Shown: positions 30,801 to 33,800 of the stretch, piece by piece
Layout of the letters: every line of letters begins with the position of its first letter
How positions within the stretch are numbered: the first letter of the stretch is position 1
Origin: Escherichia coli O157:H7
GTDB taxonomy: Bacteria; Pseudomonadota; Gammaproteobacteria; Enterobacterales; Enterobacteriaceae
Assembly: GCF_013167455.1 (NCBI RefSeq)
Contig: NZ_CP038328.1
Reading direction: 5' to 3' (one strand)
DNA: 64,000 nt
Program-made: the position numbers

Positions 30801-33800
30801 GCGCAGACCCCTGAACTTCCCCACAACACGGCGGCAATCAGAACGTTCAGCATCCCCTTTCTGGTGGAACCCATTTTTCCCTCTGCATACTGTTTTGTCG
30901 TTTATGTATGCAGGCATGATAGCAAAAATGGCGAGGATGGCTCAGTTTGCGCCACGCCGATTTTTCTTAGCCCAGACTGGTGAGCTAAATATCTTTAATA
31001 AACAGCAAGCAAATCATTGCAATACCCAACATCCCTATCGCCAGCCAGAACAACGTGTGGTAGCTCCAGATTTCAACCATAATTTCGTCAACAGAGCCGG
31101 CGATAATCTAGCCGAAGCGTGAGGTATTTGCATATAACGTTGTTGCGGAACCTATTCTTATTTATCGGAGTGCCTTGCCAGTAATTTACTGACGAGGATC
31201 CTCATAATAGCGTTACCCATCTGTTGCATTGAGACTTTACAGGCCGTTATTCTAAATGACCAAAATTAAATCAGTGCATAAGGGGAAGTATTCTGTAGTG
31301 ATGTCTCCCTGAGATGCAGGTTCCACTGGAGAAAATTATGAGCAGTTTGTTTCAGAATGAAATAAAGGATAAATTTAAAACTGGACTTGCATATGTGCGG
31401 GGGCCAGAAAAAAGCGGATCTTCCGCTCAAAATGCAGGTAGCGAAGGTGGTAAAAAATGCGCCGGGAGAAGCAGAAGATTGTCCCGCGATGTCCGTTTGA
31501 GAAACACGAGTTTGATTAAACGCGTGAGCATGATGATATTAGTAGCTGACCAGAGAAATTATATCCGTCGTAAGCAATAAAAATCAGAAGTGATGTTATG
31601 GATATTTTTAACCTGAATAACTCCGTAAGTACGGGGTTATTCAGGTTTTTGCTAGCCTGTGCTTTTCTATACCAGATGTGGTGTGAACACTCTATTCTGC
31701 ATACAAATTAAATATATTGTAGGATCTAATATAAGTCTGATAATACTAATAGACTGAGTAAGATTCTGGTTGATAATAACTGATATCCTTTTCAACTATT
31801 AATGTGTTTATTTAGCGTGAAATTATACTCGTATTTTTATAACTTTATGAGATTGCCAGGTTTGGTCGATAAATAATAAGGCCAGTGACAGACTTACTTA
31901 TTAGGGACAAATTTCGCGAGGATATCAGGTTCACTGGCAACATAAATGCTTTCATCAGGCAGAGTTACAATTCCTTCAGGTTGGGGCAAATCACTGGTCA
32001 GAGAATGATTTCCTTTTGTCAGGTCAAGCATCTCAATGAAAGACATCTCTGTCAGGTTAAACTTGAGTAATTTACGCGATTCATCGGACAGAATCATCAG
32101 ACTTTCATTATTAAAGGCCAGGCCGGATATATCGTTAACACGTATATCATTTAGTGCCTCTGGAATAGTTGCTTGCTTTACACTCAGCAGGTCTGGAGAA
32201 AGTTGATATATAAATATTTTACTTGGGCGTCTTTCTTTTGCGACAAACAGCATCCGATCATCTGCTTTCCATGCCAGCCCTTCAAACCCTCTATTCTTTT
32301 TATTGAATTTTTCTAACTGAATTTTATTTCGAAAGGAGATATGCATATCTTTTGTAACTGTAAAAAAGAATAGTTCAGAAGTCTTTTCGTCTACTGCAGC
32401 AAAAATGTTCCCTTGTATGTGTTCAATTGTTTCGGCATCAGAGATAAAAGGCAGTGGGGCTCTGTCCATGATGTCGCCACTTTTGGTTATTTTAAGTAGC
32501 TGTGCAGGGCTATTCTGGGTGGCATACAGGAAATCATCCTCTTTATTATAAGTAAGAGATGATAAGTTCACCGTATTTGGTAATTGTTTTATAAATGAAA
32601 GTGAGTGTTCTTGAGGTGATTTTTTGTAAGTACAATTAAATGGAAATAATATTAATATGGTTAGTGCAATAAATATCGCGATGAAAAATGCAATCAATGG
32701 TTTTCTTTTCATTTTCTCTATTTGCTGTAAATTGTTTGCAGAATAAATATCTTTGTTTAATTGTGATTAACTTCGGAATAAATTGTTAATAATTATGGGT
32801 GTGGTTTCTATTATTAGTTTTGATTAATAAAGTTTTATTTTAAGTGTTTTGTAAGTACGTTTCAGATGCGGCATACCTTGGTTGTAGCGCACTTACCATT
32901 TCATCGATTATACATTTCACACCTTGCGGCACTTCATAAGAAGTCCTGTTCGTCAACATGCCCATCTCGTTGGGGCGGTCTTCTGGCGCCATTATCAGAA
33001 CCCCAGTATGGCTGGTAACATAAATGTTTCCATCTGATGATTGAGAGATACTGATGTTAATGCAAGCGTTAGGTGTATCTAATGATCTTTCCGCATTGTA
33101 TTCACTGGCTTTAGAGATCCTTTCATGTGTCAACGTTAAGGCTGGCACATTGAAAGATTGATAGAAAGCCGAGCATATGGCCGTTGCTGCTTCTGGATGG
33201 CATAAAAATTCCACAACTTCAGCTTTCTGTTTATCACTGCCGCTGCTTTCTCTTGCTATTTGCTCTGCATCATGGCGAGAAATACCATGATCTATAACAT
33301 TCCGGGTTGGTGATGAATGTGTGTCTTTAAGTCCTAGTGCATCGCGAAGCAATTTTTGTGCATTTGCAGGTATATCAACACCATTGAGTGAAAGCTTTGC
33401 ATTGCCGAGTCCTCGACATGTATCCATAAAGATAGAGCTGAATGGTGTAGGCCCGGAAAGCGGATCTGTTTGAGCATTATGAGGAATCAAGGTTGTTGAT
33501 AGTTTTGACGTAAAACCAAGTAGATTGCGCATTGAGGTAGTATCAGTCAGGTCCATCTCAGATAAGGCACGATGAACCTGAATGTATGGCATGTGGCGAT
33601 CGATGGGTAAAGATTGTAATAACCTATTTTGTTCGTTTGACTCCAGGAGCACAGTAATCTTTTCATTATTTGCTGTGCGAATCTCGGCTTCAACAAGTTC
33701 GCTGTTAGTGACGGAAATTCTTAAGGATGAACCATCTGAAAAACGAGCAGATACTCTGCCTAATTCATTGGGAAGTGGATATACAGGCTCTAAAACGGTT

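Follow-up and report, generated by a model that had tools for sequence, protein, structure and literature searches.

Remnants of setC, tssB and yjdJ at the rorf1-side boundary of the LEE in Escherichia coli O157:H7

The junction between yicL and rorf1

We analysed the junction between the chromosomal backbone and the LEE (locus of enterocyte effacement) in a 64,000 nucleotide stretch of Escherichia coli O157:H7 (RefSeq: GCF_013167455.1, contig NZ_CP038328.1), hereafter called the window. The gene order is nepI, yicS, nlpA, yicL, an interval of 1019 bp, rorf1 and espG. The open reading frame (ORF) of yicL is intact (29951-30874, minus strand, 307 amino acids) and is annotated as yicL in O157, K-12 and enteropathogenic E. 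coli (EPEC). The first LEE gene, rorf1 (31894-32712, minus strand), is annotated as such and encodes an SdiA-regulated domain protein (Pfam: PF06977, E-value 4e-53), and espG (32840-34036, minus strand) was identified by its ORF and annotation. All of the window rightward of rorf1 belongs to the LEE up to base 64000, which lies inside espB. The interval between yicL and rorf1 (30875-31893) holds no intact gene. We read it, with a probability of roughly 85%, as the selC-distal (rorf1-side) LEE boundary of O157:H7 and its relatives, that is, as a scar of recombination and deletion and not as a working element. A preliminary description of this DNA had placed the end of yicL at 30874 and rorf1 next to the interval, in agreement with ORFs and annotation. 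It had also seen a shift to AT-rich composition, and the GC content indeed drops from 0.45-0.48 (30.6-31.0 kb) to 0.33 (31.5-31.95 kb).

The anatomy of the interval was derived from blastn matches and alignment breakpoints, from protein-level tblastn matches for all four gene fragments and from the annotations of O157, K-12, EPEC and O111. The part from 31219 to 31893 was resolved by searching a 28-Gb collection of 5,426 complete E. coli genomes at high sensitivity and by pairwise comparisons. From left to right the scar is made up of the intact spacer between yicL and setC, two non-contiguous setC fragments, the upstream region and about 32 codons of tssB, the 3' part of a yjdJ-like gene and a LEE core flank of about 150 bp that precedes the rorf1 stop codon. 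Positions 30600-32100 of the window are 100% identical to many E. coli O157:H7 chromosomes. In the public annotation of the O157 junction only a 174-bp pseudogene of a major facilitator superfamily (MFS) transporter and a hypothetical protein of 36 amino acids are marked; the second setC piece, the tssB remnant and the yjdJ remnant are all unmarked.

Collinearity with K-12 (96.4% identity) extends from yicL through the 110-bp intergenic region between yicL and setC (30875-30984, one mismatch) and then covers the last 174 bp of setC, up to 31159. This first setC remnant (30985-31158, minus strand) consists of codons 338-394 and the stop codon, with one internal stop (tblastn against K-12 SetC: 53 of 58 residues identical, E-value 3e-32), and is annotated by the Prokaryotic Genome Annotation Pipeline (PGAP) as an MFS-transporter pseudogene in O157 and EPEC. 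The second remnant (31157-31217, minus strand) corresponds to nucleotides 172-232 of setC with codons 58-76; it is 87% identical to K-12 setC over 61 bp (blastn), 15 of 19 amino acids are identical (tblastn), and the E-value in the 28-Gb E. coli collection is 6e-8. It is collinear with the first piece and has the same orientation in a different frame. Compared with K-12, 781 bp are deleted between the two pieces, with a 3-bp overlap at the join, and about 235 bp of the gene survive in total from a reading frame of about 394 codons. Another 792 bp of K-12 sequence are replaced by the island, namely 171 bp of the setC 5' end and 621 bp up to 15 bp from selC.

The K-12 order of yicL, setC and selC, which the preliminary description had given, is correct, with a rhuM fragment lying between setC and selC. 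Its statement that the interval contains no setC-like MFS gene has to be revised to two remnants, the 174-bp 3' end and 31157-31217. It had suggested an alignment to K-12, O157 and EPEC genomes; the breakpoint is now mapped, with K-12 collinear to 31159 and the second setC piece reaching 31217. Neither an intact selC nor an intact setC was found in the interval, only setC fragments, and in K-12 yicL is followed by setC.

Nissle 1917 has lost setC independently, in a second event: its homology to O157 stops 29 bp beyond the yicL start (window position 30903), and what follows is a hypothetical gene and another island's decayed CP4-57-like end (DUF4942, cbtA/yeeU).

The setC remnants are followed by a segment (31219-31442) that matches the tssB upstream region and the start of tssB in E. 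coli E143 (L007 4001-4233) with 75% DNA identity and an E-value of 2e-33. The product of tssB is the small subunit of the type VI secretion sheath, and the E143 protein matches the family TIGR03358 (TssB). The first part of the segment (31219-31337, plus strand) is a remnant of the tssB upstream region. The second (31338-31442, plus strand) is a 5' remnant of tssB, in which about 32 of about 165 codons are left, with a frameshift and an in-frame stop; it begins with MSSLFQNEI, which equals TssB residues 1-9, and 22 of 37 residues are identical to TssB residues 11-47 (E-value 1e-10).

The adjoining remnant (31434-31549, plus strand) is the 3' end of a yjdJ-like GNAT acetyltransferase gene. About 40 codons at the end of a gene of about 90 codons are left, with a 2-bp deletion and an in-frame stop; an intact gene of 91 codons is found in E. 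albertii. On the protein level, 25 of 32 residues are identical to a GNAT fragment (tblastn, E-value 2e-16) in the pheU-type LEE island of E. coli Z1323CEC0001 (here L006). The DNA identity is 88% to L006, 87% to yjdJ of E. albertii and 77-80% to yjdJ of E. coli. The tssB and yjdJ pieces overlap at 31434-31442, where both parent genes read AAAC.GCTGGT.GC, and because the parent genes share this sequence, a fusion of tssB and yjdJ by deletion at a short similar stretch is suggested.

The native downstream region of the yjdJ gene is retained as well (31550-31743, plus strand), collinear with the E. albertii type-strain contig (L019 10002-10314) and with L006. It includes a terminator hairpin at 31610-31650 with a 17-bp stem and a U-run, identified by self-complementarity and folding (-27.8 kcal/mol, z-score -5.9). 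This region ends with the motif TGATAA (31738-31743), at which a 956-bp segment with espS is absent from the window: 31434-31743 corresponds to L006 5001-5313 and 31738-32000 to L006 6270-6545. Both pheU-type LEE islands and E. albertii have the segment, with TGATAA at each of its edges. The espS gene itself encodes 291 amino acids, lies at 5358-6233 of L006 and from about 10360 to the contig end of L019, and has no Pfam hit; its product is annotated as EspS in some genomes, and the gene is cleanly missing from the O157 and EPEC flank. An exact-sequence look-up of EspS gave contigs of 1.4 kb only.

From 31738 onward the sequence is the rorf1 flank common to other LEE islands. The outermost sequence shared with pheV-type islands, found by blastn against O111, is 31766-31893, which we regard as the LEE core edge; an insertion sequence (IS) or integrase remnant lies directly outside it in O111. 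Besides the carriers of the whole junction described below, 73 further genomes match only 31766-31893, with 93.8-94.6% identity among the matches listed.

A scan of 26000-35500 with the Rfam 15 covariance models at E-values up to 1 gave no match inside 30875-31893, and consensus scans for promoters and terminators gave counts not above those of shuffled sequence. Below the gathering thresholds, V_AS5 was matched in the spacer between espG and ler (34796-34919, minus strand, 36.6 bits against a threshold of 96) and naRNA4 at 26417-26482 (plus strand, 32.9 bits against 59.5), beside a toxin-antitoxin insert. These two matches may represent repeat elements rather than the named RNAs.

The selC side, carriers of the junction and the adjoining backbone

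It is standard knowledge that the LEE is inserted at selC in O157:H7 and EPEC and at pheU or pheV in other strains (PMC7545054), and the site in the Sakai strain has been named 'yicK to selC' (10.1101/549998). The order rorf1-espG-ler at the island end, seen in ORFs, annotation and Pfam matches, and the position of the island between selC and yicL/setC place the LEE of the window in the selC type: yicL and the setC remnants abut the island here, and selC lies at the opposite end in the O157:H7 strain PV15-279. There it is found 8143 bp past the end of the window, after espF, an IS3-family remnant, CP4-57-like genes, ISEc31 and a tyrosine integrase, and coordinate arithmetic gives an island length of about 40.9 kb. 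On this side the K-12 homology stops 15 bp after selC. The preliminary description had proposed as one alternative that the selC end lies beyond espB with setC lost at the junction, which is right for selC, and right for setC insofar as it is largely but not wholly lost.

selC had not been seen in the interval, and ARAGORN predicted zero tRNA genes over the whole 64-kb window. The 24-mer of the selC 3' end, searched across the window with up to three mismatches, had no match, so the direct repeats of the selC 3' end for which a search had been proposed are absent from the window, and the distal junction carries no direct repeat of the tRNA 3' end as an island bounded by att repeats would. A short-word blast search of selC and its K-12 and O157 downstream sequences against the junction gave chance-level matches only. 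The best selC-like string was GATCTTCCGCTCAAAATGC at 31417-31435 (18 of 19 positions, E-value 0.15), suggestive by adjoining the tssB/yjdJ fusion point, and was rejected because tssB of E143 carries GAGCTTCCGCTCAAACTGC at the same codons. Strain 12690, considered as another holder of a selC island, was set aside since it has the plain K-12 arrangement.

The tyrosine integrase stands beside selC in the O157 genome. The window contains none, and there is none beside selC in the EPEC O127:H6 strain E2348/69 despite the same distal junction. Because E2348/69 shares this junction without having the integrase, the integrase element beside selC may be a later arrival.

Positions 31160-31893 are carried by 383 complete genomes, and the same number carries the span from yicL to rorf1. 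Carriers include O157:H7, O55:H7, O145 and E2348/69, which is 99.4% identical to the window over 30801-32000 and has the same setC pseudogene. Four internal breakpoints are common to the compared carriers: the internal deletion of setC, the join of setC to the tssB upstream region, the tssB/yjdJ fusion and the join lacking espS. Because all four are shared, the scar was probably made once. The B2-like strain HEC0108 has the same scar though its nlpA is replaced by another gene cluster. In this strain (L017 7041-12609) the replacement consists of a KdgM porin, a TRAP transporter and a GH88/105 hydrolase cluster, yicL is slightly shortened and the junction scar is unchanged.

The backbone next to the scar was compared with E2348/69, Nissle 1917, K-12, HEC0108 and a phylogroup D-like strain (L018). 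By established typing E2348/69 and Nissle 1917 belong to phylogroup B2; K-12 belongs to phylogroup A. Over 3.8-27.3 kb the identity of O157 to the B2 strains is 96-97.5%, and from about 27.9 kb to the junction it is 99-99.5%; K-12 drops to 88-95% there. HEC0108 likewise rises to 99-99.5% at about 27.9 kb. Over 27289-27875, O157 differs from E2348/69 at 23 sites (19 for Nissle 1917), and beyond this at about 0.7% of sites, whereas K-12 and the D-like strain have the reverse pattern with 0-4 differences followed by 6-15%. The nearest non-O157 type nearby is L018, with 98.2-99.2% over 21-27.9 kb, no differences in 27289-27738 and 88.5% from 27889 on. These comparisons delimit a B2-type backbone tract (27889-31217) that comprises the 3' part of nepI (27335-28573, plus strand), yicS, nlpA (29129-29947, plus strand), yicL and the setC remnants. 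The crossover that bounds it falls within nepI, at some point from about 27740 to 27889. The tract from 28000 to 30900 is at least 99% identical in 818 genomes, compared with 335 for the control 22000-26400, where B2 strains are the most distant class.

On the other side of the junction, LEE1-3 of O157 and E2348/69 are 99-99.6% identical, which is the same level as in the tract. Further along the LEE, the identity between O157 and E2348/69 falls sharply from about 99% to 68-90% at about 51.0 kb and returns to 96-99% at 56-57.5 and 59-61 kb, which is a mosaic pattern. The selC-side flank of O157 (yicI-yicJ-selC) is not B2-like. We infer that a B2-type genome and the O157 lineage (phylogroup E) exchanged, by homologous recombination, a block from the middle of nepI through the junction into the LEE, and the scar would have formed on the B2-type nepI-yicL haplotype. 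An origin on this haplotype would account for the identity of the setC pieces to K-12 being 87-93% instead of about 97%. One crossover is mapped (nepI, about 27.74-27.89 kb), and the second would lie inside the LEE or towards selC.

The window backbone has further differences between strains. Between yicN and nepI lies an 840-bp insert (26449-27288) with a RelE-family toxin (26796-27149, minus strand) and a helix-turn-helix antitoxin (26489-26812, minus strand); it is absent from K-12, E2348/69 and Nissle 1917, and the same pair occurs in O145, HEC0108 and the D-like strain. A 3.3-kb insert between ilvN and uhpA (14180-17536) contains four ORFs on the same strand (221, 160, 125 and 367 amino acids) without Pfam hits; it is absent from K-12 and E2348/69, and other genes occupy the spot in Nissle 1917 and the D-like strain. 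Small backbone indel islands are found at 3085-3575, unaligned with K-12, and at 8069-8663 and 11225-11861, unaligned with the two B2 strains.

Island history and alternative explanations

A scan of the species representatives (298 Gb) for a 20-mer of the terminator gave three matches, of which only the E. albertii type strain is meaningful; the other two, in a Methylococcaceae and a Clostridium metagenome-assembled genome, were set aside as about the chance number for a 20-mer in 298 Gb by our estimate. On the E. albertii type-strain contig, fumB-dcuB-dcuR-dcuS (NCBIfam) are followed by the intact 91-codon yjdJ, then by the same terminator with its spacer, and finally by espS, where the contig ends. 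Its yjdJ-espS stretch is 96.9% identical to the pheU-LEE flank of E. coli Z1323CEC0001 and 87.3% identical to window 31434-31743 (E-value 1e-105). In Z1323CEC0001 the order is yjdJ fragment, espS, rorf1, espG, ler. The LEE is reported to be located at pheU in all E. albertii strains (PMC4700944). Judged from these alignments, the yjdJ fossil points to an island that would once have stood directly beside chromosomal yjdJ, as in E. albertii today.

The pheU-type LEE island of Z1323CEC0001 also contains type VI remnants (the TssA N-terminal domain and VasL) upstream of the same yjdJ fragment, and a module leading straight into tssB in E143 is common to this island and E143 at 90.5% identity. An earlier order of integrative-element module, type VI cluster, yjdJ fragment, espS, rorf1 and LEE is thereby supported, though not proven, and the tssB fossil would reflect passage through a larger composite island with a type VI secretion cluster.

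Taken together, the debris may form a readable island history, to which we give an even chance. The LEE would have left an E. albertii-like genome, where it stood beside yjdJ, with the yjdJ 3' end attached. It would then have passed through a larger composite island with a type VI cluster, of which only the start of tssB survives here, and would have inserted at selC, with destruction of setC, in a genome whose backbone haplotype was B2-type. Finally, homologous recombination, with one crossover in nepI, may have carried the finished junction and LEE1-3 into the O157 lineage.

Several observations weigh against our reading of the interval or single parts of it. The second setC piece spans just 61 bp, with no more than 87% identity to any E. 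coli setC, and the tssB match is 75% identical at the DNA level. The E. albertii contig ends inside espS, and continuity to rorf1 and the LEE is taken there from the E. coli homologue. An intact array from tssB through yjdJ, espS and rorf1 was found in no genome, and a motif scan for the tssB upstream region in 100,044 species representatives gave no match. The imported block does not cover the whole island, as identity in the tir-eae-esp part goes down to 68-90% in its most divergent bins. Direction and timing of the import are deduced from the five comparison genomes and collection-wide identity classes.

Other explanations concern the content of the interval on the one hand and its origin on the other. 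The preliminary description had reported an orphan basic ORF of 88 amino acids at 31314-31580 (plus strand). This frame exists, with 88 open codons and an ATG, in a stretch that could be transcribed, as it lies between the former type VI upstream region and the strong terminator hairpin, and PGAP calls a different hypothetical protein of 36 amino acids at 31393-31500. That the ORF is a real small LEE-associated gene, for example for a regulator or a secreted protein, is nevertheless hardly credible: a Pfam search gave no hit, nine codons are in frame with TssB and the remainder is out of frame with both remnants, and the sequence is explained by these two unrelated pseudogene remnants. Moreover, 1-bp indels at 31414 or 31452 cut the frame to about 61 codons with an altered C-terminal part in HEC0399, E2348/69 and HEC0108, three of the four related genomes compared, and it is thus not conserved across lineages with the LEE at selC. 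The ORF is a chance reading frame across debris and not a gene. A different doubt concerns the yjdJ-like and tssB-like pieces, which might be chance similarities or sequences picked up piecemeal and would then be silent on former LEE locations. In favour of this doubt, neither piece is long, and the copies in E. albertii and the pheU island diverge from that of the window by 12-13%. We consider this improbable, because the yjdJ match extends over 310 bp, includes the coding end, terminator and spacer in the order and orientation of E. albertii and ends exactly at the start of espS. The E-values are 1e-105 for the match to E. albertii and 2e-33 in the 28-Gb collection, and the same yjdJ fragment stands beside rorf1 in an independent pheU-type island.

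With respect to the origin of the junction, the other alternative of the preliminary description, a rearrangement peculiar to this strain, has nothing in its favour except that setC and selC are missing from the interval. It can be given practically no weight, as the same 1.5-kb junction is present at 99-100% identity in 383 complete genomes from several serotypes and two phylogroups. It is also conceivable that the EPEC1 (B2) and O157 (E) lineages acquired the LEE independently by integrase at selC, so that the likeness of the junctions is convergent and the B2-like tract a shared ancestral polymorphism. Older literature (Wieler 1997; Donnenberg and Whittam 2001) reportedly describes the LEE as separately acquired in EPEC1 and in enterohaemorrhagic E. 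coli 1 (EHEC1). The intimin, tir and esp genes differ strongly between EPEC and O157, and an integrase stands beside selC in O157. Independent acquisition is still distinctly improbable in view of four independent breakpoints shared base for base and a distal end without att repeat. Furthermore, L018, the strain closest to O157 in the neighbouring 6 kb, carries from 27.9 kb onward the allele of the K-12 type, which means that this background did not originally have the B2-type allele.

The fine anatomy is of modest value in three respects. A spurious ORF drops out of consideration. One scar in LEE-at-selC genomes of two phylogroups argues for the spread of a ready-made junction by homologous recombination and not for repeated integrase-mediated insertion. 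The tssB-yjdJ fusion and the nepI crossover provide two sequence markers by which LEE lineages could be followed and an E. albertii-like source tested.

Comparison with known islands

The junction itself is already known: textbooks place the LEE of O157:H7 and EPEC at selC, and public annotation includes the setC pseudogene. In full-text literature searches neither the nepI crossover nor the remnants of tssB and yjdJ turned up; the early LEE papers lie outside those searches. Only the evolutionary reading of the debris may be new.

The LEE of O157:H7 at selC, for example in PV15-279, is the same locus as in the window, with 100% identity over the junction and the same order of nepI-yicS-nlpA-yicL, setC pseudogene, rorf1-espG-ler to espF, integrase element and selC. 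We take this LEE to be OI-148 of EDL933 and SpLE4 of Sakai, and the O157:H7 LEE was reportedly sequenced by Perna and colleagues in 1998. The LEE of EPEC O127:H6 E2348/69 has the same scar, LEE1-3 at 99-99.6% identity and, as in O157, an IS3-family remnant at the espF-side end. Unlike O157, it is without the element of about 5.4 kb with integrase, ISEc31 and CP4-57-like genes between selC and the island, and its backbone is B2-type throughout, whereas that of O157 is B2-type only from the middle of nepI to the junction.

The pheU- and pheV-type islands (O111 RM9322 and the chicken strain Z1323CEC0001) share rorf1-espG-ler and the core flank with O157, from 31766 in O111 and from 31738 in Z1323CEC0001, whose island also shares the yjdJ fragment and carries the type VI secretion remnants. 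Outside the core the flanks differ from O157: O111 has IS remnants, nleB and nleE, and Z1323CEC0001 has espS, IS2, a lifA/efa1-like (DUF3491) remnant and IS256. In contrast to O157, these islands are inserted at other tRNA genes and are without the setC scar.

A further likeness is to the High Pathogenicity Island, which is said to have spread in E. coli by homologous recombination of flanking backbone (Schubert and colleagues, PLoS Pathogens, 2009). Common to both are an island-adjacent tract with a phylogeny discordant with the chromosome and an identical junction in distant lineages. At the LEE locus, in contrast, only one crossover is mapped, in nepI, by sequence comparison.

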